A DNA stretch of 64,000 nt, from positions 4,913-68,912 of the IMG/VR virus record IMGVR_UViG_3300037067_002302, one strand, 5' to 3'. Below, one piece after another: positions 1,518 to 60,754 of this stretch. The notes below the pieces were generated by a model that saw only the letters and a program-made list of their open reading frames with translations, ran no database searches and was not told the DNA's origin. Numbering within the stretch: position 1 is the first letter of the stretch; the number at the start of each line of letters is the position of its first letter. This DNA comes from a virus. Its lineage: Duplodnaviria > Caudoviricetes. The translations under genes were made by a program, and so were the position numbers.

Positions 1518-1547
1518 TTGACAATCATACATTCCACCTGGTATAAT
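1518..1547 (+). promoter_or_regulatory. Sigma70-type promoter
   Basis: TTGACA-N18-TATAAT with extended -10 TG. Confidence 0.8.
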
Positions 1548-1554
1548 GGAACTA

Positions 1555-1707
1555 GCGAAAACAAGAACAGTTAAATGAGCGGCGCTTTTTTATTAGGTAG
1601 TCTTATAACGGCTGTCCATACCACTAAAACGGTCATGGACATAAATGGCGGGCTTGTACGGCTGTTCTTGTTTTCGCAAATAAGGCGCGGCTCAGTGCAG
1701 GCCCGCC
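1555..1707 (+). ncRNA. C4-like antisense RNA cassette 1 plus downstream target sites
   Basis: Perfect 16-bp closing stem 1555-1570/1662-1677. Internal TGAGCGGCGC and GGCGGGCTTGTAC are complementary to downstream GCGCGGCTCA (1685-1694) and GTGCAGGCCCGCC (1695-1707). Confidence 0.7.
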
Positions 1708-1726
1708 GTTTTATGTACAGAGGTAG

Positions 1727-2470
1727 ATGTTATGCCATATAAGGACAAGGAAAAAACGCCGCGAACATGATAAACAGTGGAGAGACAACAATCGTGAAAA
1801 GATAAGGAAATATCAAAAGAAATATAGAGATAATAATCCCGATAAAATAAAAGAGAGGTTGAGGGTTTACCGAGATACTCACTTACAAGAAATGCGGGAA
1901 TATTCAAAACGTTGTCGGGAAGCACATCTAGATTGCATCAAAGAACGCCAGAGGTGTTATCGCGAGGCAAATCGTGAACGCATAAATGAATCGCGAAAAC
2001 GTTGGCGCAAGTTACATTCCGAACAATATAATAAAAAACATTGCGAAGAATCGAAATGTTACCGGAAGGCACACCCAGAACAAAATAAGCTCTGGCGCAA
2101 GGCACATCCAGAGCGAATTAAAGAATATACGAGGCGTTATCATGAGTCGCATCCTAATAATTATCGCAATTGGCAAAAGGCAAACGCTGATATATGCCGA
2201 GCAAACAATCATCGCAGGCGGGCCAGGTTCACAGAAGTAGAAAATACTCTTACTGTCAAAGAATGGCAAATCATAAAAGATACTTATAAGCACAAGTGTG
2301 TCTACTGCGGCAAGAAGCTGAAGAACCTGACGATGGATCATGTCATACCAATCTCGAAAGGTGGAGGGCATACCAAGGAGAATGTAGTGCCCGCTTGTAA
2401 GTCATGTAATTCTCGTAAGCGAGATCGTGAAGCACCCGCATTTCAGAGAGCGTTATTATACGCTGAATAA
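1727..2470 (+). CDS. HNH endonuclease with long charged helical-repeat N-terminus
   Basis: C-terminal CVYCG...TMDHVIPISKGGGHTKENVVPACKSCNSRK. N-terminal W/YRxxNxE repeats. Confidence 0.85.
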   Translation: MLCHIRTRKKRREHDKQWRDNNREKIRKYQKKYRDNNPDKIKERLRVYRDTHLQEMREYSKRCREAHLDCIKERQRCYREANRERINESRKRWRKLHSEQYNKKHCEESKCYRKAHPEQNKLWRKAHPERIKEYTRRYHESHPNNYRNWQKANADICRANNHRRRARFTEVENTLTVKEWQIIKDTYKHKCVYCGKKLKNLTMDHVIPISKGGGHTKENVVPACKSCNSRKRDREAPAFQRALLYAE

Positions 2471-2481
2471 GGAGTGGAAAT

Positions 2482-2724
2482 ATGAGATGTAAAACTTGTG
2501 AAAACACCATCCAGAATGTACCGGCGCACCTGCGGGATGCTGCGACCTGGATATGCCATCGGTGCTCGTGCAGCGACCATACGACTGTAGTTGCCGCAAT
2601 GGTCAGGGCGGATGAGATAGAGGCCGACAAGCATCGCCACAATGGCAAAAAGCGCGGCAAGCCGATAACTATTGCGCCGAGAGGTGCAGGGATACCGACG
2701 TGTAGGCCGAGAGGAAAGGTATGA
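2482..2724 (+). CDS. Hypothetical Zn-binding protein
   Basis: CxxC...CxxC; RBS GGAG; operon packing. Confidence 0.55.
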   Translation: MRCKTCENTIQNVPAHLRDAATWICHRCSCSDHTTVVAAMVRADEIEADKHRHNGKKRGKPITIAPRGAGIPTCRPRGKV

Positions 2725-2921
2725 AATATACAAAAGCAAAACTTGAGAGGATGTTGTCACTCCTACTTGATCGTTCGGTATTCATACCTTGTAAGCATTG
2801 TATTTGCAGCGATGACAAAGGTCACTGTGAATATCTTTTTGCTGGGTCTTGCCCGCAGTCTATTTGCGCCAAACTTGAAAGACTGGCTGATGAAGCGGCG
2901 AAGAAAGGTGGTGTGAAATAG
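2721..2921 (+). CDS. Hypothetical Cys-rich protein
   Basis: ATGA overlap; RBS GAGGAAAGG. Confidence 0.6.
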   Translation: MKYTKAKLERMLSLLLDRSVFIPCKHCICSDDKGHCEYLFAGSCPQSICAKLERLADEAAKKGGVK

Positions 2922-2922
2922 A

Positions 2923-3147
2923 ATGCGAATCGTTATAGATGGCACAGAGATTGGTTTTGCCATACAGACGAAAGATGATCTCGTGAAGTGTATCGAAGAG
3001 TGTAAAGATAGGGTTGTGAATGAGATATATAGCAATCTCTCAAACGAAGAAATACGTGACGTTCTCGTATCGAGCGAATACCGTGTGGGAGAACGCTTGA
3101 TAATGGAAGCAGGCAATAGATTAATGGAAGGTGGTGTGAAAAAGTGA
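2923..3147 (+). CDS. Hypothetical protein
   Basis: Operon packing; ends GGVKK like the previous gene (GGVK). Confidence 0.6.
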   Translation: MRIVIDGTEIGFAIQTKDDLVKCIEECKDRVVNEIYSNLSNEEIRDVLVSSEYRVGERLIMEAGNRLMEGGVKK

Positions 3148-3323
3148 GCATTAAGGAAAGAGGCTTTGCCTCAATGGACGCGGATAAGCAGCGCGAGATA
3201 GCGCGTAAGGGCGGTCGATCCGCGCATGAGAAGGGAACGGCCCATGAGTGGGACAGTGAGGAAGCCAAGGCAGCCGGACGTAAGGGCGGCGAAGCGAAGA
3301 GAGCCAAGAACGGTACGGCTTAA
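3144..3323 (+). CDS. KGG-repeat (general stress protein, YciG/Con-10-like) small protein
   Basis: 59 aa from GTG, not in track: MSIKERGFASMDADKQREIARKGGRSAHEKGTAHEWDSEEAKAAGRKGGEAKRAKNGTA. Confidence 0.85.
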   Translation: MSIKERGFASMDADKQREIARKGGRSAHEKGTAHEWDSEEAKAAGRKGGEAKRAKNGTA

Positions 3324-3368
3324 TTTTTTTTGGCACTAAGGTTGAGGCTGTGGGTGTGGGTGTGGAAA

Positions 3369-3638
3369 ATGAGTGATTGTACGCGTTGTGGTAAATGTTG
3401 CCGCGAAGAAGTCTGTTTTATAGGGAGAATGGCATTGCTCTCAGATAAAACACCTTGCCCTGCGCTGTATCAGGAAGGTGACGGAAAATATTCATGCGCA
3501 TTTGTCTCTTTCGAGAGGGATATGGGAGTGGAGCCGTTAATAGCTGAAAGCCTTGGTATCGGTAAGGGATGCACCTACAATTGTGAGTTTGTAGAACTTG
3601 AGCAGCATGGACAAATAGCACTTAGTATTGATTGTTGA
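3369..3638 (+). CDS. Cys-rich protein (CxxCGxCC; YkgJ-like metal cluster)
   Basis: MSDCTRCGKCCREEVC...CPAL...CAF...GKGC. Confidence 0.55.
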   Translation: MSDCTRCGKCCREEVCFIGRMALLSDKTPCPALYQEGDGKYSCAFVSFERDMGVEPLIAESLGIGKGCTYNCEFVELEQHGQIALSIDC

Positions 3639-3665
3639 CGGGCGGCGGGAGCGGTCAGGAAATGC

Positions 3666-3695
3666 TTGACAGTTGAGCGCGGGATGCGCTAAAAT
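3666..3695 (+). promoter_or_regulatory. Sigma70-type promoter
   Basis: TTGACA-N18-TAAAAT. Confidence 0.7.
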
Positions 3696-3702
3696 ATATG
3701 TA

Positions 3703-3856
3703 GCGAATAGAAGGACGGTTTAAGGATGAGCCGCTTTTTTAATGTAAAATTTAATATTAGTCATGCCATTACACCTGAGATAGTAGTGGCATTCAATGGC
3801 GAGTTTGCAGAACCTCCTTCTATTCGCGTATTAGGGCGGCTCATTGCAGACTCGCC
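3703..3856 (+). ncRNA. C4-like antisense RNA cassette 2 plus downstream target sites
   Basis: Perfect 13-bp closing stem 3703-3715/3815-3827. Internal ATGAGCCGC (3726-3734) and GGCGAGTTTGCA (3798-3809) are complementary to GCGGCTCAT (3836-3844) and TGCAGACTCGCC (3845-3856). Confidence 0.7.
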
Positions 3857-3888
3857 TTTATTTATTGTACGGGTGTGGGGGTTAAGGG

Positions 3889-4734
3889 ATGGCTAGGAAA
3901 AGAATGATTGATCCTTCGATATGGGATGATGAGGATGTGGGATCGCTTTCAGATGGAGCATTTAGAGTTTTTGTTGCCTGCTTTTCAAATGCGGATGATG
4001 AGGGACGCTTAGAAGCATCCCCTCGGAGAATTAAGGGAATTGCATTTGGTTTTAAGGATTCAGTAACAATTGAGGATGTCGAGAATTATCTTTTGGAGTG
4101 TGCGAATGGTATCCGATCATTCGTCTACTATTCGTCGAATGATCGTCGAATAGTAGAATTACGAAACTGGCACACTTATCAAAAAATAGACCGTCCCCAA
4201 GCTTCAAAGTTACCTAAATACGATGAGAATTCGGTAATCGTCGAACGTTCGACGAATGATCGACGAATGATCGACGACCGTTCGTCTGTAATAGAAAAGA
4301 ATAGAATAGAACAGAATAGAAGTAGTAGAAGTGCCGCAATTGCTTTCGATGCTAGCGTACCAGGAGACCCGGACAACAACCCCCACTCTTGTTTTATACA
4401 ACTTATAAACATACACCCGACGGGAGCCGACACCCAAGGTATATCCACATGTATGAAACTTCACGGCAATGAGATAACCATCGAGGCCATCCGCGAAGGA
4501 GGATTACAAGGTAAAGACCGTTGGAGTTATATAGCAAAGGACATTCTGCCAGGGATTATTGAGGCGCATAAACAATCCGAACTCAATGATTATACCGCCG
4601 ATGGCACATACAAGCCGCGCAAACCGTCACCAGGCATGAAGTTAGTTGAAGCTAATTTAGAGTTAGAACGAAAGCATCTTGCGAGATTGGAGGCTAAACG
4701 TCTTGAGCAGCAAGAAAAACGCGACACCGAATGA
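3889..4734 (+). CDS. Phage replication initiator / replisome organiser
   Basis: MARKRMIDPSIW...ADDEGRL N-terminus typical of phage initiators; contains iterons; precedes DnaB. Confidence 0.75.
   Translation: MARKRMIDPSIWDDEDVGSLSDGAFRVFVACFSNADDEGRLEASPRRIKGIAFGFKDSVTIEDVENYLLECANGIRSFVYYSSNDRRIVELRNWHTYQKIDRPQASKLPKYDENSVIVERSTNDRRMIDDRSSVIEKNRIEQNRSSRSAAIAFDASVPGDPDNNPHSCFIQLINIHPTGADTQGISTCMKLHGNEITIEAIREGGLQGKDRWSYIAKDILPGIIEAHKQSELNDYTADGTYKPRKPSPGMKLVEANLELERKHLARLEAKRLEQQEKRDTE
4132..4331. repeat. Putative replication origin iterons inside the initiator gene
   Basis: 11-bp TCG(T/A)CGAAYGN-like units at 4132, 4143, 4238, 4249, 4260 and 4271, then an AATAG-rich purine tract at 4290-4331. 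Confidence 0.65.
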
Positions 4735-4744
4735 AATAGCCTCT

Positions 4745-6094
4745 ATGGGTTATGAACCTCCGAACAACATTGACGCGGAGCAATGCGTGCTTAGTGCAAT
4801 GATGCTTGATACGAAAGCCATACCCGTAGTTGCTTCAATGATCGGAAAGAATGATTTTTACAGGCCAGCTCATGGAGAAATATACGAGGCTATTTGGGCG
4901 CTATTTCAAGAGAAAAAGCCCGCCGACACAATTATGGTTCAGGAGGAGTTGAGAAAGCGCGGCATCCTCGATGAATGCGGCGGACAAGAATATCTCATGG
5001 CGATAATATATCAGCTTCCTTCTTCATCAAGGGCGGAATATTATGCTGAGATCGTTAAGGACAAGTCTGAACTGAGGGAACTTGCCAAGCTCGGTCGTGA
5101 AATACATGCCGATTGTTTCTTGACCAACACGACCGCCGCCGAATCGAGGGAAATGGCGATAACAAAACTACTGTCACTCAATAACAAAACAGCGCGTAGC
5201 GGACTCGTAAAAGTGGCTGAGGTCGTCACGGAGGTACATGAAGACATAGATAAAGCCGTCAGTGGTGAGAGTTTACCACTTGGACTAATGACCGGTATCA
5301 GGTCGGTTGATTCTATCACCACAGGCTTACAGGTCGGCTTGAATGTCATCGCGGCAAGGCCAAGCGCCGGTAAAACCGCGTTGATGCTTCAGATAGCGCG
5401 TAATAATAATGTCCCTATTGCATTCTTCAGCCTTGAAACTACCGCAAAGCAACTCGTAAGGAGGCTTATCACGGCGGGAACGGGTGTAAGTAATTATCAG
5501 ATGCGGCGCGGATTTCTCGACGAAGAAGAAATCAATATTGTTACCGACACCGTAAACACGATTTATAACATGCCATTCTATATTTACGATAAAGGATGCG
5601 ATATAAGCCGAATCATCGCTATGAGTAACCGCGCTAAACTCCAATATGGGATCGGCGCGGTAATGGTGGATTACTTACAACTCATCACGACAAGAGGCAA
5701 TTTCGGCTCGCGGGAACAGGAAGTGACCTATATAGCGCGTTCACTGCATGATTTGTCAATGCAGTTGGATATTCCAGTTATTGCCGCAAGTCAGTTAAAG
5801 CGACTACCCGAAGCGCGAAGAATGTCTAAACCATCCAAGGATGATTTACGCGAATCAGGTGAGATTGAAGCTGTTGCGTATTGTGTCATCCTACTGCACA
5901 ATCCTAAGCCTGAAATAGACGAAGGCAGTCCAAGGGATGCTTCTATTATAATCGCCAAATACAAAGACGGTACGACAAGCGATGTAGATGTTAAGTGGGA
6001 GGGCAAGCGGATAACATTTTACGATATTGAAACCAGACACGAGGAGGATCAATCGGATGCAGAAGACAAGCGAACCGCCTATTGGCGAAAATAG
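4745..6094 (+). CDS. dnaB: Replicative DNA helicase
   Basis: PPNNIDAEQCVL N-terminus, Walker A AARPSAGKT, VMVDYLQL, SQLKR, DLRESGEIE. Start may be upstream (track 4679). Confidence 0.95.
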   Translation: MGYEPPNNIDAEQCVLSAMMLDTKAIPVVASMIGKNDFYRPAHGEIYEAIWALFQEKKPADTIMVQEELRKRGILDECGGQEYLMAIIYQLPSSSRAEYYAEIVKDKSELRELAKLGREIHADCFLTNTTAAESREMAITKLLSLNNKTARSGLVKVAEVVTEVHEDIDKAVSGESLPLGLMTGIRSVDSITTGLQVGLNVIAARPSAGKTALMLQIARNNNVPIAFFSLETTAKQLVRRLITAGTGVSNYQMRRGFLDEEEINIVTDTVNTIYNMPFYIYDKGCDISRIIAMSNRAKLQYGIGAVMVDYLQLITTRGNFGSREQEVTYIARSLHDLSMQLDIPVIAASQLKRLPEARRMSKPSKDDLRESGEIEAVAYCVILLHNPKPEIDEGSPRDASIIIAKYKDGTTSDVDVKWEGKRITFYDIETRHEEDQSDAEDKRTAYWRK

Positions 6095-6245
6095 CACACT
6101 CAAGCTGGTTATCCATACGCAGTTTGGGTTGATAACATTCGAGACTGACGACAAGGATGAGATTAACGCCGCTATTACAGCAATAGCGGACTGTCGGAGG
6201 GAACGGCAGAAGGGTTTGGATAGCAGGAAAGAGCAGGCAGCGTGA
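6027..6245 (+). CDS. Hypothetical protein
   Basis: 72 aa overlapping the dnaB end; start uncertain. Confidence 0.4.
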   Translation: MKPDTRRINRMQKTSEPPIGENSTLKLVIHTQFGLITFETDDKDEINAAITAIADCRRERQKGLDSRKEQAA

Positions 6246-6261
6246 ATGAAAGGATTGAGAT

Positions 6262-6735
6262 ATGAATAAATTGCAATACAAGCGATGGAAAGAGTTTGCT
6301 ACCGGCATGGCAAAGAATTATCCGAATGCCACCGAGAGGCGTAGGCAAAGATTGCTGGCAGAGGTCAATAATTGGTTCGGTTGGCATGATGACGGTAGTT
6401 GGAAATATTACGTTTCTTGGGATGTAAGCCGCAAGATTCATAAGGATGATAGGTATAGTGCTAATTTGTGTTGTGACATCTTCAAAGAATCCTTCGAGAA
6501 ATACAATCATTACGATGAGGACTGCGATCGTTACGAAGAAGGTAAATTTTGGACTCAGTTGGCTTGTTGTATTCGCGCCGGATTGGATTGCGCCGCCGAG
6601 CCAAAAACAGGTGTTATTGGATTTACAATATCAGACCTAAAGAGTTTTTTCAATGAATCCATACCAAAGTGGATTTCAATATCGTTTGGCACAAATCTAA
6701 ATAAATGTGACCCAAGCGAGAGTATTTGGCTTTAA
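6262..6735 (+). CDS. Hypothetical protein
   Basis: 157 aa; operon context. Confidence 0.7.
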   Translation: MNKLQYKRWKEFATGMAKNYPNATERRRQRLLAEVNNWFGWHDDGSWKYYVSWDVSRKIHKDDRYSANLCCDIFKESFEKYNHYDEDCDRYEEGKFWTQLACCIRAGLDCAAEPKTGVIGFTISDLKSFFNESIPKWISISFGTNLNKCDPSESIWL

Positions 6736-6791
6736 TGATAGTGGTTCATTACGAGAAAATGAGCAGGCGGATAGAAAGGAATTGAGCAAAT

Positions 6792-7043
6792 ATGATCTAT
6801 GTGACACTAACGGACGCAGAAGGCCGGTTGGCTGGACGAATCACCTTATGGAATGACGGAACCGGCACGCCCGAAAAAGGAAACTACGTCTGCAAAATAA
6901 TACGTAAAAGTGGAGATTTTATCCAAGTAAATATTGAGGGATTTGATCGAGTCAATAACGACGCGATAGACCTGCTACGCGAGGCGTTAAACGCAGGCGG
7001 CGTGAGGTCGGTGAGGATTGAGGAGGAGAAGCAAGATGGGTAA
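6792..7043 (+). CDS. Hypothetical protein
   Basis: GRITLWNDGTGTPEKGNY motif reminiscent of small phage proteins. Confidence 0.65.
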   Translation: MIYVTLTDAEGRLAGRITLWNDGTGTPEKGNYVCKIIRKSGDFIQVNIEGFDRVNNDAIDLLREALNAGGVRSVRIEEEKQDG

Positions 7044-8022
7044 GACGAAAATCCCGTGGGTTAAGAACACTGATGGATCGCAAGGCGAAACGCTGAACGT
7101 TAATGTCGGATGCACACCGATAGCTTCAGGTTGTAGAAACTGTTGGAGTGAAGATTTGCATGAAAAGCGCCATAAAGCGTATCTCGCGGGTAAGCTCCAG
7201 AACTGCCCGCAGTATGCCAGGCCGTTCTCGACAATTCAGTTTTTTCCTGAGCGGCTGGAGATACCGCTTCGGCGCAGAAAGCCGACGACATACTTCATTA
7301 ATTCGGTCAGTGATCTGTTTCATCCTGACGTGCCGGATGAGTATATTGATGAAGTTCTAGCTCGCGTTTTACTTTGCCAGAGACATACGTTCATAGTTCT
7401 TACTAAAAGAGTTGCGCGTATGCAAGAATACCTCTCGGATACTGAACGTATGGGAATGGTCTACCAAGAAGCTGATGACCATGTTTGGAGTGAAGGGATA
7501 AATCCATCCGAACGAAATAAAATGATGATTGAGCATACGCCTGAATCTGAAATTGAATGGCAGGGTGATATGGCATTCGGACTTCGGGAGGTATGGCCAC
7601 TCCCGAACCTCATCCTCGGAACCTCGGTATCCACACAGCCCGAAGCAGACGAGAACATAAAATATCTACTCCAGATACCGGCTGCCTGCAGGATCGTGAG
7701 TATTGAACCGATGCTGGAGGCCGTGAATTTGATGAGGTTGGAAACAAGCACAGGATGGGTTAATGCATTATATGGTTTTTCGCAATATGTTAGCCGCGGC
7801 GAATCACTCGACGGAATCATTTGTGGCTGTGAAAGTGGCAAGAAACGCCGACCGTTCAATGAGGACTGGGCGCGTCGATTGCGTGATGAATGTCACGCGG
7901 CAGGCTGCGACTTCTTCTACAAACAGGGAATTCAAGGCGGCAAGCTGGTTCGCATGCCTCTTCTCGATGGAGTACTGCACGACTCGCTCCCGTGGGTGGC
8001 GAAGGCGGAGGTATCCAAGTGA
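7036..8022 (+). CDS. Phage Gp37/Gp68 (DUF5131) family protein
   Basis: KTKIPW, GCTPIASGCRNCW, FINSVSDLFHP, RHTFIVLTKR, PNLILGTSV, VSIEPML, IICGCESG, FFYKQ. Confidence 0.9.
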   Translation: MGKTKIPWVKNTDGSQGETLNVNVGCTPIASGCRNCWSEDLHEKRHKAYLAGKLQNCPQYARPFSTIQFFPERLEIPLRRRKPTTYFINSVSDLFHPDVPDEYIDEVLARVLLCQRHTFIVLTKRVARMQEYLSDTERMGMVYQEADDHVWSEGINPSERNKMMIEHTPESEIEWQGDMAFGLREVWPLPNLILGTSVSTQPEADENIKYLLQIPAACRIVSIEPMLEAVNLMRLETSTGWVNALYGFSQYVSRGESLDGIICGCESGKKRRPFNEDWARRLRDECHAAGCDFFYKQGIQGGKLVRMPLLDGVLHDSLPWVAKAEVSK

Positions 8023-8363
8023 AAAAAGATAAATTGGAATGGCTCGCCCGACATTGGGCGGCGAAAATCGGTGTAAAGGTAAATCCAATATCAATAGTCC
8101 CGATGCTTGGCAAGTGGGCATCAATATCCAGTCGTGGATTAAAACTAAATATTGATCTATTGAATACTCCGCGAAAATTATGCGAATTTGTGATTGTCTA
8201 TGAACTTGTGCGATCCATACATCCGCATAATAAATTATTCAATGCGTTCATGCTCACCTATATGCCTGATTGGGAACGCCGTAGGGATCAGCTTGATAAT
8301 ATCGGAGCACAATGCCCTGATAAGGTGGAGAAGGCGGAGGTAGTAAATCATGGCATGTGCTAA
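8019..8363 (+). CDS. YgjP/DUF45 (M48-like) family protein with degenerate metal motif
   Basis: GKWASISSRGLKLNIDLL...EFVIVYELVRSIHPHNKLFNAFMLTYMPDW; the canonical HELxH is here YELVR. Confidence 0.65.
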   Translation: MKKDKLEWLARHWAAKIGVKVNPISIVPMLGKWASISSRGLKLNIDLLNTPRKLCEFVIVYELVRSIHPHNKLFNAFMLTYMPDWERRRDQLDNIGAQCPDKVEKAEVVNHGMC

Positions 8364-8583
8364 GCGAGAGCGTACAGGTAGTTGCGGACATTATCAATGC
8401 CCATTTCCTGCAGTTAGTGGTTATGAATGTGTAGATATTTTCTGTGGCTATTGTGAGGTCGGTGAAGGTTGTGTTGATAAATGCGAGTGGAGCTGTGAAG
8501 CTGTAGATAGCGACAAAGCATTGGAAGCTGTTTATGAAGCATTTCCTGAATTGCGTGATGTTATACCGGAGGTAACCAAGTGA
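8350..8583 (+). CDS. Hypothetical Cys-rich protein
   Basis: Nine Cys; overlap with previous gene. Confidence 0.5.
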   Translation: MACAKRERTGSCGHYQCPFPAVSGYECVDIFCGYCEVGEGCVDKCEWSCEAVDSDKALEAVYEAFPELRDVIPEVTK

Positions 8584-8662
8584 AAACACAAATGACGTAC
8601 GCGCACGAACTGGCACTATGTGGTCTCCGCAGGATAGCAGAACGCGAAGGATGGAGAAAACA

Positions 8663-9067
8663 ATGTTGAGCAAGCGTAGCGACCGGCCCAAAATATCTGA
8701 GAATGCGTTCCAAGCGCAATTTATTGATCTAGCTCGTCAATTGGGTTGGAGGGTAGCGCACTTCAGGCCGTCGATAAATAGGCGCGGTAAGTGGTCAACC
8801 GCCGTGCAGGGTGATGGCGTCGGGTTTCCAGATAACATCCTCGTCAAAGGCAGTCGAATCATAGCAGCTGAATTAAAAAGTGAGGCTGGCAAACTCACAC
8901 CGGAGCAACTTATATGGCTCAATGTGTTCAGGCTTACTGATGCAGAAGTCTATGTATTTAAGCCGTCCGACTATGACAACATCGTTGAGATATTGAGGCA
9001 TAAGCCGGATAACCGAACAATCCCAGAAATGATGATGGACGCGGCGGCGAAGCGGGGGCAGATGTAA
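8663..9067 (+). CDS. VRR-NUC domain (PD-(D/E)xK) nuclease
   Basis: ISENAFQAQFIDLARQLGW...GFPDNILVK...AELKSEAGKLTPEQLIWL. Confidence 0.85.
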   Translation: MLSKRSDRPKISENAFQAQFIDLARQLGWRVAHFRPSINRRGKWSTAVQGDGVGFPDNILVKGSRIIAAELKSEAGKLTPEQLIWLNVFRLTDAEVYVFKPSDYDNIVEILRHKPDNRTIPEMMMDAAAKRGQM

Positions 9068-9348
9068 TGGATTTAATAGGCAACATATTGTTTGGTGTAA
9101 CCATAGTGTTTTTTATTCCAACCGTTGTCTTGATTTATATCTGGTTGCAAGATCGGAGGAGAATAACAACAGAGGCTGCTACTAAACTTACTTGCGAGTG
9201 TTGCAACTGCGGATGGATTGAGAGGCTCAATAGAGAATATGGGTTGAGTCTGGTTGGCACACAAGATTATATATGTCCACTATGCGGCAATAGGGGAGTT
9301 ATTACAGAGAATAGACCGGCTGCGAACGGCGGAGAGGGCGAAGTCTAA
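9067..9348 (+). CDS. Hypothetical membrane-anchored Zn-ribbon protein
   Basis: N-terminal TM segment; CCNCG...CPLCG. Confidence 0.6.
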   Translation: MDLIGNILFGVTIVFFIPTVVLIYIWLQDRRRITTEAATKLTCECCNCGWIERLNREYGLSLVGTQDYICPLCGNRGVITENRPAANGGEGEV

Positions 9349-9632
9349 TGAAGATCACTACACGGAAGGACTATGATTACGACAAACGCGGAAAACATGC
9401 CAACGGTAATTATGCGGCTACTATATGGGAGAAGGACTTAGGAAAAGATATAGAGCGTATTGGCGATACTCCAATTGATGCACTCACACAGCTTTATATT
9501 GCCGCTCAGGAGCGCAGGCAATATTATGATAATGCCATGAACGCTATCTTAAAGAAGCGATGGAGACTATGCACGGCGGCTGCTCGCGCCAAAAACCATG
9601 CCATTTCAAGCGTGGGCGAGAGGGACAGATGA
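9348..9632 (+). CDS. Hypothetical protein
   Basis: TAATG coupling. Confidence 0.6.
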   Translation: MKITTRKDYDYDKRGKHANGNYAATIWEKDLGKDIERIGDTPIDALTQLYIAAQERRQYYDNAMNAILKKRWRLCTAAARAKNHAISSVGERDR

Positions 9633-10486
9633 CACCATTTTACACTGATAACCTCGTGGAATTATATCAAGGTGATGCGTTAGAGTTATTGAGACAGATA
9701 CCTTCGGAATCCGTCCACATGGTTTGTACGAGTCCGCCTTATGACAATCTTCGCGTTTACAACGGCTTCACCTGGGACTTCGAGGCGACGGCGAAGGAAC
9801 TCTACCGTGTCCTCGTACCGGGCGGCGTCCTCTGTTGGAATGTCAATGATTCGGTAGTAAACGGGTCCGAAACGCTAACATCCTGCAAGCAAAAGATATT
9901 CTTCCGCGAGTAATGCGGTTTCAGTATTCACGACACGATGATATGGCATAAGCTAAACCATGCAAACCCGGAATTCACTCGCTACCATCAATTATTTGAA
10001 TACGTCTTTATTTTATCCAAAGGCAAGCCAAGATGCTTCAATCCAATAATGGACAAGCCGAATGCTCAAGCCGGGAAAATTGGCGCATTAGGGCAAAACA
10101 CCTATATGAAACGCGATGGTGCGAAGTCTACCAGGCACACCTATATGACCAAAAAACTCGGTATGCGCGGCAATGTATGGAGAGGCAAAACGGCAGGTCA
10201 AGAAGTTGTTTGTAAAAAGCTCTGGCATCCCGCAATGATGCCACTATGGTTGGCTAAAGACCTTATACGGTCGTGGAGCAATGAGGGCGATACGATCCTC
10301 GACCCGTTCGCGGGCAGTTGCACGAGCTTACTTGCGGCCAAGAGTCTTGGCCGTCGCGCTATCGGCATTGAGATAAGCGCGGAATATTGCCGTATGGCGG
10401 TTGATAGACGCCTTTTTGGTCAGATGACGATGGATAGCAACGAATGCCCGCGCTCAGTGGAGCTTGCAACGAAAGGAAAGGGATAA
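9629..10486 (+). pseudogene. Beta-class N4C/N6A DNA methyltransferase interrupted by one in-frame TAA (9911-9913)
   Basis: LYQGDALELL, TSPPY (motif IV), then FRE*CGFSIHDTMIW in frame, HPAMMP and ILDPFAGSCTS (motif I). Confidence 0.85.
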
Positions 10487-10878
10487 TGACAATCGAATCT
10501 TATGGCTTCCAAGAGGTCTTAAAAGTACTCGAGGCAGTTACCGGGGAACGTGACGATGACAATACCTGCGTCGTGTGTGGCTGCACTGATGACCGCGCCT
10601 GCCAGGAAGGATGTTTTTGGATCGCCCGGGGCCTGTGTAGCGCTTGCGTTGATAAAGCCATATTAACAGTCGCCCATGCAATCGAGAGGCAGTCAATATC
10701 AATTCCCTGCCAATATCGAGCCGGGCAGCCGGTCATGACGGATAAGGGACCCGGTAAGATCGAGATCGCTTTTGAGGATGACGGCGGGAACTGGTATCTC
10801 GTTGGGGTCATGGTCGATGGACTGCCGCTAAAGATGATTGTCGACGAACCGGATATCAGGATGATTGGAGATGAGTAA
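10486..10878 (+). CDS. Hypothetical protein with CxxCGCTDDRAC motif
   Basis: CVVCGCTDDRACQEGCFWIARGLCSAC. Confidence 0.7.
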   Translation: MTIESYGFQEVLKVLEAVTGERDDDNTCVVCGCTDDRACQEGCFWIARGLCSACVDKAILTVAHAIERQSISIPCQYRAGQPVMTDKGPGKIEIAFEDDGGNWYLVGVMVDGLPLKMIVDEPDIRMIGDE

Positions 10879-11377
10879 ACGGAGGCGAATGCCGGGAGCG
10901 TACCTGCCCGAAACGAAGCTCCATAAGGGACCGAATGGTCGCAACTTGTGCCGTTGGTGCTTGAAGGAAGTGCCCGTTGGTCGCCGAACCTATTGTAGTG
11001 CTGAATGTGTCCATGAGTGGCGTTGCCGAACTGATCCCGGTTATGTACGGGAAGAGGTACAAAAACGCGATAAAGCCCTATGTAGTCGTTGTGGGCAGCA
11101 ATGCCGAATAGTCACAAGCTTTCATGATGCTTATGTTGCGTTCCGAATGTTAGAGAGATTGTGCCGAGACTGTTTTCAGTATTTCCTCAGAAGGAATCGA
11201 GAACGCCCAACCTGGGAGGCTCATCATAAAGTGGCGGTTGCAGAGGGCGGCGGCGAATGCGGCCTGGATGGATACGAAACGCTATGCAGGGATTGCCATA
11301 AAGCCGAAACTTCCGCACTGAGGAAAAGATTATCTCGGCAAAATAAAAATACATCAGATCAAATGAGGTTGATATGA
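10871..11377 (+). CDS. HNH endonuclease
   Basis: CRWC...YCSAEC; VQKRDKALCSRCG; WEAHHKVAVAEGGGECGLDGYETLCRDCH. Confidence 0.85.
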   Translation: MSKRRRMPGAYLPETKLHKGPNGRNLCRWCLKEVPVGRRTYCSAECVHEWRCRTDPGYVREEVQKRDKALCSRCGQQCRIVTSFHDAYVAFRMLERLCRDCFQYFLRRNRERPTWEAHHKVAVAEGGGECGLDGYETLCRDCHKAETSALRKRLSRQNKNTSDQMRLI

Positions 11378-11637
11378 GTAAAAAATACTGGTTCGATGAA
11401 GATGGCAGCAAAATCACCATCACGATGAGCCTCGCGATAAAGTCGGGTGGAATGCGTAAATGTTTCTTTCCGTTCCTCTACTCGCCGGGATACAAGGGGA
11501 TTCTAACCGAACCTGACCTGACAAATTGCGCGACCCGCCTTGAGGCTGAAGAGATTGTGCAGCTCCACGCCGATAAGCACGGATGGAAGACGTTCGAGGA
11601 TGATGTCCAGGCGACGGAGGTATGTCATGTCAGTTAA
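11374..11637 (+). CDS. Hypothetical protein
   Basis: ATGA overlap. Confidence 0.6.
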   Translation: MSKKYWFDEDGSKITITMSLAIKSGGMRKCFFPFLYSPGYKGILTEPDLTNCATRLEAEEIVQLHADKHGWKTFEDDVQATEVCHVS

Positions 11638-12373
11638 ATTGAAGCCGATCTTATATACACCATCTGGTAGAGCTGGAGAATATGCTAATCACGGTTATGC
11701 GTTGAATCTTTATAACGGATGTCCTCATGGTTGTAAATACTGCTATGTGCCGGATATAAAGCATATAGACCGTGAGAAATTTCATTCATCCTGCACACCG
11801 CAGCCCAATATATTGGAGCGACTAAAGGCCGATCTTGATAGACTTGGTAAACTTGATGAGCCTATATTTCTCTGTTTTTCGTGTGATCCTTACCCGCTAG
11901 GTTATAACAATGTGCTTACAAGGGATGCAATCACTCTTATAAAATCCAGCGAGAATAACGTCAGGATTCTTACTAAGAACGGTGGCGATGCACGGTTTGA
12001 CTTTGATCTACTCGATCCAAATGATGAATTCGGAGTAACGCTAACAACCTTAAAAAAGCAATGGGAACCCTATGCTTCGACGCCATATCAACGGATCGAT
12101 GCCATTGTCAAAGCACATGTTCGAGGTATTAAAACCTGGATTAGCTTCGAGCCTGTTATTGATCCTGATGAGACTCTCAGTTTCATGGAACGCATGGCTC
12201 CGTATGCCAACATCTTCAAGATCGGCAAGTTAAATTATCATCCACTCGCTAAAACAATTGACTGGCGTAAGTTCGCAATCGAAGCGTCGACGCTTGCAAC
12301 AAAGCTCGGTGTGCCATTTATGTTGAAGGCCGATCTGAGGGCGTTTTTGAAGCCGGGGGATATTGACTTATAG
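11627..12373 (+). CDS. Radical SAM protein (SplB/Rv2578c-like)
   Basis: YALNLYNGCPHGCKYCY (CxxxCxxC), FSCDPYP, VRILTK, WISFEPVI. Confidence 0.85.
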   Translation: MSVKLKPILYTPSGRAGEYANHGYALNLYNGCPHGCKYCYVPDIKHIDREKFHSSCTPQPNILERLKADLDRLGKLDEPIFLCFSCDPYPLGYNNVLTRDAITLIKSSENNVRILTKNGGDARFDFDLLDPNDEFGVTLTTLKKQWEPYASTPYQRIDAIVKAHVRGIKTWISFEPVIDPDETLSFMERMAPYANIFKIGKLNYHPLAKTIDWRKFAIEASTLATKLGVPFMLKADLRAFLKPGDIDL

Positions 12374-12391
12374 CCGCCGATATGATAAAAT
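12363..12391 (+). promoter_or_regulatory. Sigma70-type promoter
   Basis: TTGACT-N17-TAAAAT. Confidence 0.7.
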
Positions 12392-12397
12392 AATATC

Positions 12398-12499
12398 GTC
12401 TAGGGAACGTGGTAAGACCGCTTCATATTGTGGTAAAATAAATCTGCACCCGATTCGGGCTACGTTCCCTAGACAAGAACGCGGTTCCTGAGTCGGGTG
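12398..12499 (+). ncRNA. Compact C4-like antisense RNA cassette 3 plus downstream target sites
   Basis: 15-bp stem 12398-12412/12460-12474 (one G-U). Internal GACCGC and CACCCGATTCGGG pair with downstream GCGGTT (12481-12486) and CCTGAGTCGGGTG (12487-12499). Confidence 0.65.
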
Positions 12500-12519
12500 T
12501 TTTGCATTTGGGGGATAGG

Positions 12520-12846
12520 ATGGACGACAAGGAAAAGCGACGGGATGACTATCCGGCACATTTACCGGATTCGCCGGAATGGTTGAAGAAGGGCGCGATC
12601 ACCAAATATGATGATGGCAAATCCAGGCCGTATAAGGCCCGTATTGTGGATAATCATAATGCCAATGGTTGTCTCACTATAAAAAATTTTCATAATACTT
12701 CGTGGCAAGATATGCTTGCTCACCCGGAGGAACTGTGGCCTTGGGGAGAACTGACTCGGACGATCTATAAACGCGATACCGCCGACAGCCGGATTGAGAT
12801 TATCTTCGTATCTCAGGGATCGGCGGCGAAGACGGTGGATGGATGA
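12520..12846 (+). CDS. Hypothetical protein
   Basis: ATG with GGGGATAGG RBS directly after cassette 3. Confidence 0.6.
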   Translation: MDDKEKRRDDYPAHLPDSPEWLKKGAITKYDDGKSRPYKARIVDNHNANGCLTIKNFHNTSWQDMLAHPEELWPWGELTRTIYKRDTADSRIEIIFVSQGSAAKTVDG

Positions 12847-13061
12847 CTGTCTATAAATCGCTTTTCGGTGGCCAGCATCGCATCAAATCACTGCCACTGC
12901 GCGATACCAGGATTGAGGCCCAGGCCGCGCTCGATGAATACGCCAAGAAGAAAAAATGGAGTAGGTACGGCGAATTCGACGAGAACGGCGAGATGCAGCT
13001 CGACCACATGAAGCCATATCGCGATGTAGTAAAAGCCGAAATGAATTACGAAAGGAGGTGA
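12843..13061 (+). CDS. Hypothetical protein
   Basis: ATGA overlap. Confidence 0.6.
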   Translation: MTVYKSLFGGQHRIKSLPLRDTRIEAQAALDEYAKKKKWSRYGEFDENGEMQLDHMKPYRDVVKAEMNYERR

Positions 13062-13065
13062 TACC

Positions 13066-13278
13066 TTGCCAGACGTATCAGACATCGAAAAACGTTTCAC
13101 TGATCATCCGCCGAAGGATGATCAGCCGCAGCGATACACGGAAATCAGGGATAAGGCAAAAGAGTTAGCAAAGCTCATAAATGGCCATTGTCCCGAAAGC
13201 CGTGAGAAGTCGCTGGCACTCACGAAGTTGCAGGAAGTTTCCATGTGGGCGAACGCGTCCATAGCCTGTAACGAATAA
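13066..13278 (+). CDS. Acb2/Tad1-hairpin-like protein (candidate cyclic-nucleotide sponge)
   Basis: RFTDHPPK...RYTEIRDKAKELA...CPESREKSLALTKLQEVSMWANASIA; strong RBS AGGAGG. Confidence 0.6.
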   Translation: MPDVSDIEKRFTDHPPKDDQPQRYTEIRDKAKELAKLINGHCPESREKSLALTKLQEVSMWANASIACNE

Positions 13279-46769: not shown

Positions 46770-48380
46770 ATGGCAGGAAATCCTTACGGCGGTATTGCGC
46801 CGAATATGTTTATATCCAACCTGTTTACCTCGCTCATCAATGAGAAGTTGAAGAAAAAGCAGGAGGAGCAACAGGCGGCACTACTCGCCAATGAGATAGC
46901 GCAACAGCAGTTTGCAAACCGCATGGCCGAAGATCAGGCGCGACGACAACAGCAGTCATTAGATTATCAACGCAAAACCCAACAGGAACAGCAGGATTAT
47001 GCTCGTCAGCAAAATGCGATGAAGGATTATTATGGTCTTGTCGACATGTCTGGCGATCCGAATATAACACCCGAAGCGTATGGCAGTGCCGCGAGTATGT
47101 TTGGTCAACAGTATCCACAATTCCTGGATAAGATACCAAGTTATCAGGTTCCGAGGCCAAAGCCGATGCCCGATGAAGACATGATGAAATTGTCCTTGGC
47201 AGCTTACGACACTGGTGGTGCTTCGGCGGGAAATCTGATAAATGCAAAATATGGACTTACCACACAACAACCAGTGCCTAATGCAAATATTTTATCGGCA
47301 CTGACTGGTGTTGGGCCATTACCAACCCAGAAAGTTCCTTTAGTATATCCTCCTAGCCTGAGTGAAAATGCCGCGACTACACGAACTCAGATTGCTACTG
47401 ATAAGCAATCAAGAACGGATTATGCCAAAATCCTCTCAACCGTAGCGGCCAGTTCATTCGGGAGATTAGACCCAAGACAGCAACAAACAATGTTGAGGGA
47501 ACTGGACAATAAACAGCAGGCTCTTGGTATGGCTCCGTGGCCTAAAGATTCAAGCGGAATGTATGTGCCACCTGAGCGCGTACCTAATTATGGAGCCTTG
47601 CAGTCGGCGGCGTTGATGATACAAGCCGGAGCCGATTCGGGTTCAGACTGGGTAACTCAACAGGGACTTGCACTGCTTGATAGGGTATGGCAAGACGCGG
47701 GTATGTCGCCATCGCCGGGTGTGCAGGTCGCTCCTGGCGGTGTTGCGCCTGCTCCCGTGACTAATTATCAACCTACCGGCCCGGGTACATTGCCGAGTTT
47801 CCCTAACCTTCAGCCTCCGAGTGGTGGATATAATATACCACCTTCACCCAAAGCTGTATTAGATAGAACCGGAAAGGTATTAGACATAACCAGTAAAGAG
47901 CAGGACATTGCCTTTGGTGCTGAAGATCAGGTAGCAAAAAGAGAAGCGTTAAGACAGGCGGAACTTCAAAGAAAAGCTAAGGTGAAAGCCGAGGCAGCCG
48001 CTAAACGTGATGACGCTTTTAAGCGTGTTACCGACCTGTATAGTAAAAGAACGGGTGCTAAATTAGCATTAGACGAAGCTACTACTGGTGAAAAACCCAA
48101 TCCAGTAGAAGCGCAACAGTTCAGACAGTTATTAAATCAATACGATGCTGAGATTGGAAGATTAGAAGACAGTCTTATTACATTCAGACTACCTTCAGCG
48201 CAGGGTGGGCCAATCAGGGATGCCATAATTGCCGAAGCTCGTAAAGGTACGCGTCCGGGTGTTGTAGGGCCGAAAGTGAGAACACTGCTTAAATCTTATG
48301 GTGTGTCTCCGCAAGATCAAGAGTTGATCTGGCGAAAATACGCAAGGTTATATTATTATCCTAACCAGAGGAAGAAATAA
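46770..48380 (+). CDS. Internal virion/ejection protein
   Basis: Gln-rich helical N-terminus; position. Confidence 0.55.
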   Translation: MAGNPYGGIAPNMFISNLFTSLINEKLKKKQEEQQAALLANEIAQQQFANRMAEDQARRQQQSLDYQRKTQQEQQDYARQQNAMKDYYGLVDMSGDPNITPEAYGSAASMFGQQYPQFLDKIPSYQVPRPKPMPDEDMMKLSLAAYDTGGASAGNLINAKYGLTTQQPVPNANILSALTGVGPLPTQKVPLVYPPSLSENAATTRTQIATDKQSRTDYAKILSTVAASSFGRLDPRQQQTMLRELDNKQQALGMAPWPKDSSGMYVPPERVPNYGALQSAALMIQAGADSGSDWVTQQGLALLDRVWQDAGMSPSPGVQVAPGGVAPAPVTNYQPTGPGTLPSFPNLQPPSGGYNIPPSPKAVLDRTGKVLDITSKEQDIAFGAEDQVAKREALRQAELQRKAKVKAEAAAKRDDAFKRVTDLYSKRTGAKLALDEATTGEKPNPVEAQQFRQLLNQYDAEIGRLEDSLITFRLPSAQGGPIRDAIIAEARKGTRPGVVGPKVRTLLKSYGVSPQDQELIWRKYARLYYYPNQRKK

Positions 48381-51300
48381 TGTCAAAGACATTAGATCAA
48401 TTGATAACCGAATCTAGGAGAGGCCCATCACAAACCTCTACCGGGAGGACTAAATCACTTGATGAACTCCTCAAGGAATCTAAGGGTGGTGGATCGATTG
48501 GTTCTTCCGCACTCCCGCGTCAACGTACCGAAACTACGCCTACGCCAAAGACTGGCCCGAAGGCAACCGACATCGGCAAATCGGGACTTACGAAGCTATA
48601 CGAAGGCACACTGCTTATGTGGCTAAATAATAACCATCCCGCCGACATCGGGAGTGCCATCAAAGGAATTAAGAAAGAGTTCCCTGGGCTTAGCAAATCA
48701 GATCCCGCGATAAGCAAGGTATATTCGATGTGGCGCAGGAATAACCAGCCCGTGCCATTGTCACAGCGTACCGCAACACAGGCGGAAAGAGAAATAGCAT
48801 CAGGCGCGCGTCCGTTATCCACTACTGAAAAGTTTATGGTTCAGACTACGCCGGGACAAAAACAGCGGATAGAAACAATTAAAAAAGCCGAGCATCTTGG
48901 CGAAGGTTATCAACCTACCGAAATGAGCAGTTTCGATACTTTGATGAATCTATTGTTTATGGTCGCGCCACTCGGTGAGGCCGGTAAAGCACTTGCGCCA
49001 AAGCTCGGTAAGCCCGCGCAGGTTGTGCAGGCGGTCGGTGAAAAGGTTGCTAAAGTTCCTGGTACTAAGGGTATTGCAGGACGCGCCGGTTATCGCGCTG
49101 TCACTGGTGGCGCTGAGTTTACGGCGTTGCAACCGATATTCGCCATACCGACACTCGCGCAACAAGGCCCGAAGGCTTATATCGACCAGATGATAGGCGG
49201 GTTACAGCAGGCCAATATCAATAATCCACTCATCCTGGGCGCATTCTTAAAGACCGTGCCTGCCGGAATACTTGACGTGCTGAATAAGCGCAAGGTAGGC
49301 ACTCCTGTAACTGCCGAAGAAATAGAAGCTGCCAAGAATATACATAAAGCTGTTAAGGAATACGTGAAGAAGGCGGAACCGGTTGAAGCAACACCAGAGC
49401 CTACACCTGCCACTCCCGCCGTTGTTGCGCCCAATCCTGAAGTTGCCGCCGCACGTGCACGTATACAGGCGAACAGGGCGAATGTTGAAGCTGAACCGGT
49501 AACGCCTGCTGTCGAGCCTGCACAGCCTCCGGCAGTCAAACCCACTCCTACCACCCCGGAGCCTGTGAAGCCCGTAGAGGCGAAGGCGGGAGCGAAAGAA
49601 CCGTGGGAGATGAAGTCCGACGAGTTTGCTAAGGGTGTAGACTCTTATCATGAAATGAGGACTGTGCTTGGTGATACTCCTTATAAGGCTGAAGGTGACT
49701 ATTCCGGTATGTCCCTTGAACAGGCAAAGGCTATACAGGAAATTGAATCTCGAAAATCTATTGACAGTGCAATGTGGAATAAAGCATACAATGAAGTGCA
49801 GGATGAACTACTCCAAAAGTACCCCGAATATGCCACAGAAATAAAATACGCACAAGTGGAAAGAACTGCCGATACACACCAATTGCTCGTCGAAAAAGCA
49901 TTGCGTGAAGGCAAGCGCGTACCCGATTCCGTAGTTGATGAATTCTTGGCTAATGGTGGCAAGTTACCTGAGAGCGGACTGCATCAAGAGATACAATCCA
50001 ATTACGCACCGACCGCCGCAAAACCAGTGCCGACACCCGCCGTGGCTGCTCCCGCGAAGCCGAACGTTGAGGTCGCGCCGACGCCTCGTGTCAAGACGCG
50101 GTTTACGGATGCTGCTGACGCTGCCAGGAAGCGGTTGTCTGAAATAGAGTCCGAAGCCAAGCGGAATATGCCCGAAGCCGCCAAGCGCAAGCCGGGGCAG
50201 TTGGGCGCGGTTCGCAAGATGACAAAAGAAGAATTCGACCTGCATGTTATTATTGCTGCCGACCATATAGCAAGGGGAGTCAAGACTGTCGCTGAACTGG
50301 CGAAGGTCATGGCTACTGAGGGTTATAAATTCAGCAAGGCGCAGGTGGACACTATATGGGAAGCATCGCACAAGGTTGCTAGAAGCGGAGGCGGTGCAAA
50401 CGTATCTATCAAGAATGCTACTATGGCCGAGAAGTCAAAAACACTGGGCTTAGGAGAATTGCCACAGCCTAAGAAGGTGACGGCGCAGGAACGTTCGCAG
50501 CAAGCCAGCCAACTGGTTAAAAGCGGGAAGGTGACTGGTAAGGCGTTAGTTGATGAACTCGAACAAAACATGCGACCGCTAGATAAGATCGAGGATGCTG
50601 TTGTACACGAATATCAGACGCGACTTGAAGAACAATTAGCCAAAGCGCGGGAGAGTCATGGCAATGATTCGCCGGAAATAACGGCATTGGTCAAAGAGTT
50701 TGATAGAGCAAGGCGTATTTACAAAGCTACCGGCACGGAACAAGCTCGCGCACTTCAAGCTAGATCGGTAACTACTACTCCCGAAACACTTGACCAATGG
50801 TTAGCTAAAGGGCGTGACAATCAGGGTGATGCGTTCAACAGTTCAAGACAGGATAAGGTTATAACGCTTCACGAGCGGCTTGAATCCGGTATGGCGAAGG
50901 AGAAGTCGTTAGAGCAGCAGATAAGACAGCCTAATAAACCGATGGTGGCTAAGTCTCCTGCTGACTTCAAGACTGGCACATGGGGCGCGAATAACTCTAC
51001 TATCACGGTTGCGATGCGTGATGCTGCAAGGGCGCGTAGATATGCCAAGATGACCAGTCAGTTAGGTTCTATTCCTGATCCCACAATAATAGCTGATTTA
51101 GCTATTGAGATAGGGTTTCATGTTGAGGCGGGCGTTAAGTTTACTACTGCTGCAATAAAAGCCTACCTGAAAGAGGAGTTTGCCGCAAGCGATAAAGACG
51201 TTGACGCGGCATTGGCTATAGTGAGAAAGCAGGTCGCAACCGAACGGTCGTTGGAACGCTCAATAGCTGGTAAAGAGGCTAAGTTGAGTGGAGAGTCTAA

Positions 51301-58504: not shown

Positions 58505-58510
58505 TTTCTT

Positions 58511-58894
58511 TTATTGTGATTTCAGCGTTTCAAATAACTGATCCAAGACTGTCTTATGGTCAACGATTTCTGTTATTGAGTAGATTGCGCAATCCGTTTC
58601 ACCGAGAAATCGAAGCCATGCAACCTGCTTCACGCAATCCCGAAACAGACGATCTAACCTTAAAACAATAAGCCCGTCAAAATCCTTTTTTTCACTTTGG
58701 AGCAATGATTGGATTTCTTTAAGCGCAGGTCGTTCATCGACACCCGTCAAGCCGGACATTGGAGCTTCATTATAGATACGAATTAGCTCATGCCCTTCGC
58801 GTTCGCACCATTCGCGGATCGAGCGTTCTTGGATAGCCTGCGACTTACCTTGCTCATCAACCGCCGATCTGGTATATCCGATAACTTTTGCCAT
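58511..58894 (-). CDS. Truncated, probably inactive serine-recombinase catalytic-domain paralogue
   Basis: YTRSAVDEQ (Ala at the catalytic Ser position), VLRLDRLFRD; ends before helix E; closely similar to integrase residues 1-110. Confidence 0.8.
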   Translation of the reverse strand: MAKVIGYTRSAVDEQGKSQAIQERSIREWCEREGHELIRIYNEAPMSGLTGVDERPALKEIQSLLQSEKKDFDGLIVLRLDRLFRDCVKQVAWLRFLGETDCAIYSITEIVDHKTVLDQLFETLKSQ

Positions 58895-58947
58895 TAGCTT
58901 GCCTCATTAGAAATTCACCGTATAGTAACTTTCGGTTCAATGATCCA

Positions 58948-60693: not shown

Positions 60694-60754
60694 CGAAGGT
60701 AACTGAATACCCGGTGCTCACTTCTTAACTGCCTCATCTATATTATTCCCTGTT

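Follow-up and report, generated by a model that had tools for sequence, protein, structure and literature searches.

The window examined here is a 64,000-nt stretch of viral DNA (Duplodnaviria; Caudoviricetes; IMG/VR record IMGVR_UViG_3300037067_002302, positions 4,913 to 68,912) that makes up the final 64 kb of a 68,912-nt (68.9 kb) phage contig. On its plus strand we read three units of one design, at 1518-1716, 3666-3866 and 12363-12503, which we call cassettes 1, 2 and 3 (c1, c2 and c3). Each has a near-consensus promoter, an RNA closed by a long stem and holding two internal segments (a' and b'), two adjoining sites (a2 and b2) complementary to those segments just downstream, and then a gene. 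In our assessment there is a roughly even prospect that each cassette encodes an antisense RNA repressing the operon in which it lies. The original prediction, drawn from the sequence alone, had proposed three cassettes of this kind, and both their coordinates and their layout are confirmed by our own reading of the sequence, by shuffled controls and by a finder built on the design. The parts of the cassettes and the genes behind them are the following.

1518-1523 (-35) and 1542-1547 (-10), plus strand: promoter of cassette 1, TTGACA and TGgTATAAT with an 18-nt spacer, 12/12 consensus with TGn, the best match in 16 kb.
1555-1677, plus strand: RNA of cassette 1, with closing stem 1555-1572/1660-1677, a' 1576-1591, central hairpin at about 1614-1642 and b' 1643-1659.
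1679-1714, plus strand: target of cassette 1, a2 (1679-1694) abutting b2 (1695-1711), then a U-run at 1709-1714.
1727-2470, plus strand: HNH endonuclease gene behind cassette 1 (Pfam HNH, 2.5e-14).
3666-3671 (-35) and 3690-3695 (-10), plus strand: promoter of cassette 2, TTGACA and TAAAAT with an 18-nt spacer, 11/12 consensus.
3703-3827, plus strand: RNA of cassette 2, with closing stem 3703-3715/3815-3827, a' 3725-3737, central hairpin at about 3763-3792 and b' 3796-3810.
3828-3866, plus strand: target of cassette 2, a2 (3833-3845) and b2 (3844-3858), then a U-rich run.
3889-4734, plus strand: replication initiator (Rep) gene behind cassette 2 (PHROG replication initiation protein, 1.9e-17).
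4679-6094, plus strand: DnaB helicase gene behind cassette 2 (DnaB_C, 5.7e-63).
12363-12368 (-35) and 12386-12391 (-10), plus strand: promoter of cassette 3, TTGACT and TGaTAAAAT with a 17-nt spacer, 10/12 consensus with TGn.
12398-12480, plus strand: RNA of cassette 3, with closing stem 12398-12412/12460-12474, a weak a' at 12416-12421, b' 12446-12459 and a conserved linker AAGAAC at 12475-12480.
12481-12503, plus strand: target of cassette 3, a weak a2 (12481-12486) and b2 (12487-12500), then a U-run.
12520-13278, plus strand: accessory genes behind cassette 3, including an Acb2/Tad1 hairpin-domain gene.
13066-13278, plus strand: the Acb2/Tad1 hairpin-domain gene, 70 aa (Pfam PF24729, 1.1e-23).

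The promoters of the three cassettes are the three top plus-strand sigma-70 matches in the first 16 kb, and their -10 elements end 6-7 nt before the start of the closing stem, in agreement with the earlier claim of near-consensus promoters about 7 nt ahead of a stem. The closing stems comprise 13-18 bp, that of c2 being lengthened by 4-5 further pairs (3717-3721/3810-3814). Predicted minimum free energies (MFE) are -50.9 kcal/mol for c1 (1555-1677; z -7.4 against shuffles), -46.9 kcal/mol for c2 at 3703-3827 (-43.7 kcal/mol, z -5.9, for 3703-3826) and -35.7 kcal/mol for c3 at 12398-12474 (-31.2 kcal/mol, z -5.0, for 12398-12472). In all three cassettes a' adjoins the 5' strand of the closing stem and b' abuts its 3' strand, a2 begins 2-6 nt beyond the stem, and b2 adjoins a2. 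By themselves, the targets of c1 and c2 can each form an a2:b2 hairpin followed by a U-run (-13.0 and -9.9 kcal/mol), whereas the a2:b2 hairpin of c3 is unconvincing (-5.5 kcal/mol). The end of b2 lies 8 nt (c1), about 17 nt (c2) or 10 nt (c3) before the Shine-Dalgarno sequence (SD), such that no target in the window overlaps a ribosome-binding site (RBS); in c3 the SD is GGGGGA at 12510-12515 and the ATG stands at 12520. The Pfam and PHROG matches identify the genes behind the cassettes as those that had been named from the sequence, i.e., an HNH nuclease, a replication initiator with DnaB, and a cluster with an Acb2/Tad1-domain gene.

The complementarity of segments and sites stands well above chance when both pairs are taken together. 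Of 1000 shuffles, 0 (c1), 3 (c2) and 1 (c3) attained the observed two-segment complementarity in the same order. Run over both strands of the window, the design-based finder returned only c1-c3 and a set of iteron-like repeats inside the rep gene, and on a 4.85-Mb assembly c1 (score 66) and c2 (60) led all loci except one repeat locus. The score of c3 (45) is at the level of about 36 background hits in that assembly. The a':a2 pair of c3 has only 6 bp and is no better than chance. The case for c3 stands on its b':b2 pair, which is the only convincing one of its two, together with its promoter, its stem and its homologues; nowhere in the 69-kb phage contig does its b' have a better site than this b2. 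A search of the same contig for other sites complementary to a' or b' brought up none that stood out.

Whole-RNA comparisons with RNAduplex gave uninformative long-range pairings, and segments were scored in their place. In c1 and c2, the pairs a':a2 and b':b2 reach -20 to -33 kcal/mol, as against -6 to -15 kcal/mol for a':b', a2:b2, a':b2 and b':a2, and a duplicated hairpin would not give a pattern in which the two expected pairs are so much stronger than every other pairing of the arms. The same energies bear on the claim that the three switches do not cross-react, which stands for c3 and fails for the other two: only c3 is orthogonal. The a' segments of c1 and c2 pair with each other's sites at -17.6 and -16.7 kcal/mol as compared with -20.4 and -21.7 kcal/mol for their own, and b' of c2 pairs with b2 of c1 at -20.0 kcal/mol as compared with -22.9 kcal/mol for its own site, c1 b2 ranking second among all sites for c2 b' across the phage. 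Judged by these energies, the c2 RNA would have little less affinity for the c1 target than for its own, and the a' of c1 would also bind the a2 of c2.

This substantial cross-pairing concerns two cassettes that are paralogues, with 82% column identity. The original prediction that the primary sequences of the cassettes differ is correct for c3 against c1 and c2, and it is incorrect for c1 against c2. Three closing-stem pairs have changed on both sides between the two with pairing kept, and further such changes are found in a central hairpin. As c3 is not homologous to c1 or c2, we did not rely on one covariance model and instead used the design-based finder with a matrix of cognate and non-cognate pairs; MAFFT misaligned the stem of one relative, L010. 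The loci searched were 190 further loci from Rep-protein homologues, plus loci from DNA-pattern searches of IMG/VR.

The same layout with different self-matching segments recurs among these relatives. L010 is a homologue of c1 and lies ahead of an HNH gene and rep, while L008, L060 and L131 have scaffolds of their own ahead of rep. The scaffold of c3, which reads (G)UCUAGGGAA...UUCCCUAGA(C) and then AAGAA, is found in nine further distinct IMG/VR cassettes (L023, L192, L193, L194, L195, L318, L347, L358 and L368). A -10 element stands 5-7 nt upstream in every related cassette. Loci with the c3-type scaffold come from many metagenomes (L023, L192-L197, L318, L329, L347, L358, L363 and L368), each with an antisense loop of its own and a fitting site close to the RBS of the gene that follows.

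Members of the c3-type family all have the same stem base and AAGAA linker, and 92.7% of cells pair. Five stem pairs are changed on both sides, and the covariation score was reached in 0/500 shuffles; pairs 3-10 of the stem were fixed by the search pattern and hence are uninformative on covariation. The antisense and target segments are unrelated between members of the family, yet each fits its own target. Across 12 cassettes, cognate RNA/target combinations have a mean score of 56 versus 35 ± 5.7 for non-cognate ones, and the cognate target comes first in 10/12 rows. With strand-neutral scoring, the helices contain 307 Watson-Crick, 26 G·T, 1 A·C and 8 other oppositions, and this excess of G·T over A·C means that the constraint acts on plus-strand RNA and neither on a DNA repeat nor on a minus-strand transcript. 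The matrix and the count of wobble pairs thus uphold the earlier observation that pairing is kept by compensation and by G·U.

When the two best segments were sought without any constraint on order, the order a'..b' with a2-b2 emerged in every case. The place of b2 relative to the gene varies. It runs directly into a U-run in c1, c2, c3, L008, L010 and L023; it covers the SD in L060, L193 and L195, and both SD and AUG in L131; and it ends 2-4 nt before the SD in L192, L318, L347 and L368. Two of the pattern searches yielded mostly candidates that were set aside: a TGAGCSGC...GCGGCTCW pattern gave about 120 IMG/VR loci, with the closing stem present only in those already known, and of the 84 matches to a CTAGGGAA...TTCCCTAG pattern most were stems of 8 bp arising by chance in coding sequence, while four cassette types not seen before were retained. 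A blastn search with the c3 scaffold at E<=10 returned chance matches only, and the scaffold does not occur in the cultured phage records.

From the observed structures, pairings, compensating changes, strand and promoter context we infer an RNA that would act in trans, with a repressive effect exerted through termination or translation. From a strong constitutive promoter, transcription would begin exactly where the closing stem does, so that the first 77-125 nt or so of the primary transcript would form a stable, structured RNA. Its a' and b' would pair with the abutting a2 and b2, which belong to the 5' untranslated region of the gene that follows, b' supplying essentially all of the pairing in c3. 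Since a' lies beside the 5' strand of the stem, b' lies beside the 3' strand, and a2-b2 is continuous, the geometry suggests a complex in which the closing stem, a':a2 and b':b2 meet at a three-way junction. The RNA would accumulate and act on later transcripts of its own operon, as P1 c4 and P4 CI do, and the HNH, rep/dnaB and anti-defence operons would be shut off after an early pulse and kept off in lysogens. The output would probably be premature termination at the U-run after b2, exclusion of ribosomes from the SD 8-17 nt further on, or both, and polarity on the rest of the operon would follow. The main argument for action in trans is the constant scaffold whose specificity segments have been wholly exchanged, which suggests selection for distinct specificities, as between heteroimmune phages.

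Several observations weigh against antisense repression. Taken by themselves, the a' segments are no better than the genome background. The predicted free RNAs of c1 and c2 have a' and b' partly paired together, not displayed in exposed loops, and in L192 and L318 a' and b' are contiguous, such that both helices cannot be complete in one 1:1 complex. In c1-c3 the SD is not covered by b2. The phage also carries an ImmA/helix-turn-helix (HTH) module (listed below), so lysogeny does not require RNA immunity. Lastly, a discrete processed RNA and its release site are predictions from sequence, the target begins only 0-6 nt from the RNA, and a purely cis fold is sterically conceivable in c1, c2 and L010, because there the extended a':a2 helix equals the closing stem in length.

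These last points raise the possibility of a purely cis-acting leader, an alternative that we consider doubtful but that has more in its favor than any other. The nascent transcript itself would fold into a pseudoknotted three-way junction of closing stem, a':a2 and b':b2, with no trans-acting RNA; this fold would either make a terminator helix before the U-run or block the a2:b2 terminator hairpin, and a protein or a condition would modulate it. The short distance from stem to a2 suits such a fold, as does the length of the a':a2 helix, 16-19 nt against a closing stem of 15-19 bp in c1, c2 and L010, by which side-by-side helices might be joined at both ends. The a2:b2 hairpins of c1 and c2, with their U-runs, and the lack of additional targets elsewhere in the phage likewise speak for a cis leader. 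Nevertheless, a constitutive cis fold by itself regulates nothing, three mutually crossing helices are a rare fold, and c3 lacks a convincing a2:b2 hairpin. An invariant scaffold with fully replaced pairing segments is also hard to explain without selection on specificity, as the antisense repressor account would have it.

A more elaborate form of that account, which we think unlikely, treats the cassettes as modular, re-keyable phage RNA regulators in which two guides are set across the base of the stem and the three-way junction threaded by the target is itself the signal. Three such channels would time the nuclease, replication and anti-defence genes independently. The junction might then be read as a bimolecular terminator before the U-run, or by a specific nuclease recognising the invariant UCUAGGGAA/UUCCCUAGA stem and the AAGAA linker.

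A translated leader appears very unlikely. Here a frame of 55-59 codons would couple or attenuate downstream expression, and the pairings would only tune access to its AUG. The frames in question, each of which opens with an ATG within a' and ends at, or a little beyond, the start codon of the following gene, are these.

Window 1575-1742: leader open frame of cassette 1.
Window 3726-3896: leader open frame of cassette 2.
L010, 3552-3731: leader open frame of the c1 homologue.

In c1, c2 and L010 this frame runs without an internal stop, as against 1-6 stops in the other two frames, the same span is open in only 3-15% of shuffles, and the stop overlaps the start of the downstream gene. However, the leaders lack a consistent SD, every predicted state has the AUG paired, and the peptides are not conserved, c1 and c2 being put out of frame with each other by indels of 1-2 nt. 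Common descent accounts for part of the openness, so the frames are not independent cases, and the c3-type cassettes have no such frame. Least credible of all is the view that these are small-RNA genes of an ordinary kind, or leader hairpins, each with a terminator of its own, whose complementarity is a by-product of duplicated G+C-rich arms or of protein-bound DNA inverted repeats: a' does resemble b2 and b' does resemble a2 in c1 and c2, making all four arms related, and c3 does score at genome background, but duplication predicts a':b2 and b':a2 where a':a2 and b':b2 are 6-22 kcal/mol stronger, the 26:1 ratio of G·T to A·C rules out a constraint on DNA or the minus strand, and cognate pairs exceed non-cognate ones across the 12 cassettes.

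If the cassettes are antisense repressors, the closest known counterparts are the c4 RNAs of phages P1 and P7 (immI operon; Rfam RF01695 and RF03163). As the original prediction recognized, the cassettes share the layout of P1 c4: a long stem (about 17 bp) closes a structured RNA that is co-transcribed with its targets, and two recognition segments face two target sites that lie in the same transcript right 3' of the RNA and ahead of a gene. In the P1 annotation c4 occupies 48343-48419, a2 begins 4 nt after it (48423-48429), and b2 is at the RBS of icd. The specificity of both systems is re-keyed through compensating changes, and in both the RNA controls the operon behind it, as we suppose for the cassettes of the window. 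Placement of b2 over the RBS or SD is a likeness that only the relatives L060, L131, L193 and L195 share.

Membership of the C4 family itself is not borne out. With the Rfam models C4, c4-2 and c4-a1b1, covariance searches gave no match at E<=10 on 12 kb or on the 181 nt around c1, no C4-clan match in the window reached the gathering threshold (45 bits for C4), and L008, L010, L060 and L131 had no C4-clan match at E<=1. The models work, with P1 as a control scoring 68.8 bits with C4 and 51 bits with c4-a1b1. As such, c1-c3 are not members of Rfam C4 (RF01695), c4-2 or c4-a1b1 (RF03163), and the c3-type scaffold is absent from Rfam 15. Matches to SpF39 and to miRNA models in the Rfam search were weak and were dismissed as chance. 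We regard the cassettes as variants of an established design, the self-encoded antisense RNA, that add two or more new scaffolds and a junction geometry of their own.

The geometry differs from that of P1 c4 in several respects. In the window a' and b' lie inside the RNA beside the two stem strands, whereas in P1 b' is in the loop of the second hairpin and a' is in the 3' junction. The order of segments is crossed (a'..b' with a2-b2), whereas that of P1 is nested (b'..a' with a2..b2), and in the window a2 and b2 abut. The cassettes have no upstream a1/b1 and no match to RF03163; with the predicted transcription start at the stem, there is no leader to hold a1/b1 and 5' processing would not be needed. 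P1 c4 and P4 CI, in contrast, are cut from longer transcripts, RNase P making their 5' ends. The stems of the cassettes have no ACC/CCA after them, which also speaks against a need for such processing. The genes downstream also differ, being nuclease, replication and anti-defence genes in the window and icd-ant in P1.

P4 CI (seqB with seqA/seqC; related to the SeqA/IsrK RNAs) shares the logic of gating a replication operon that we propose for cassette 2, which sits directly before rep and dnaB. The P4 CI antisense RNA is derived from the leader of the operon that it controls, which contains replication genes, and it confers RNA-based immunity through premature termination (PMC4825925); the gating of replication genes, which the original prediction had called unusual, therefore has a precedent. 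Unlike the cassettes, which have two segments and downstream targets only, P4 CI has a single segment, which finds its targets on either side of the RNA, seqA upstream and seqC downstream. There is no sequence or model similarity between the two, and here one genome holds three cassettes. Antisense RNA-induced attenuation in plasmids pT181 and pIP501 provides a further comparison. There the RNA comes from the opposite strand and induces a terminator hairpin within the target. In addition, Yarnell and Roberts (1999) reportedly found that oligonucleotides paired upstream of a U-tract induce termination. The b':b2 helix would similarly be a duplex on the nascent RNA just upstream of a U-run, of the sort that can bring about intrinsic-type termination; unlike the regulators of pT181 and pIP501, however, that of the window lies upstream on the same strand and would itself supply one arm of the helix. 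Retron non-coding RNAs, HEARO/omega RNAs, riboswitches and ribozymes were dropped as candidates, as none had an Rfam match, and no reverse transcriptase or IscB gene was seen among the genes examined behind the cassettes.

To our knowledge, self-encoded antisense immunity RNAs are known experimentally so far from P1/P7 and P4. If the proposed mechanism is true, such RNAs would be far commoner and structurally more varied than the proteobacterial C4 families of Rfam suggest, and one phage would run several channels over distinct early operons, among them the one for replication and the one with an Acb2/Tad1-type anti-defence gene. The c3-type scaffold, with its invariant stem and freely exchanged guide and target segments, would then be a natural compact design for a programmable repressor. 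It is a candidate new RNA family for the catalogues. The crossed three-way junction would set the cassettes apart from c4 in structure, and this difference can be tested.

The genomic context of the cassettes points to a temperate phage. A lysogeny module lies far downstream of c3 and contains the following genes (57047-61144 in all).

57047-58504, minus strand: large serine recombinase.
60166-60693, minus strand: ImmA/IrrE metallopeptidase.
60755-61144, minus strand: weak match to an XRE-type HTH protein.

Given the ImmA/HTH pair, this temperate phage of about 69 kb probably has a protein repressor beside the RNAs, as P1 does. A tandem repeat of 27/21-nt GGTGCAGTATGTCAACCAGGGCGGCAC units is found at both ends of the contig (window 63800-64000 and C7:1-250). 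With both ends in one tandem repeat, the contig is probably a complete circular or terminally redundant phage genome broken inside a repeat-coding gene, and not an integrated prophage. The genome bin to which it was assigned (G000) measures 4.85 Mb, has 6.4% contamination and contains three RpoB-like loci, while four genomes of the same genus measure 0.9-2.0 Mb. The bin is probably chimeric, so the host of the phage cannot be read from it. No blastn match to 7.9 kb of window DNA was found in the cultured phage records. A relative of Rep with 73% identity (P0002) is encoded on a 66,447-nt contig, and it is not in 33 genomes of the same family.

The repeats that the finder picked up inside the replication initiator gene, at 4114-4273, are iteron-like direct and inverted repeats of the CGAATGATCGTCGA type and are probably the replication origin; a comparable repeat block is present in the relative L186 at 3890-4100. 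Directly upstream of the c1 promoter is a G+C-rich hairpin, GGGAGGC...GCCTCCC (1466-1506), which is followed by a U-run on the minus strand only and looks like a terminator of leftward transcription or a weak insulator ahead of c1. Between cassettes 1 and 2, a small protein encoded at 3144-3323 contains two KGG stress-induced repeat motifs (PF10685, E 5.9e-15).

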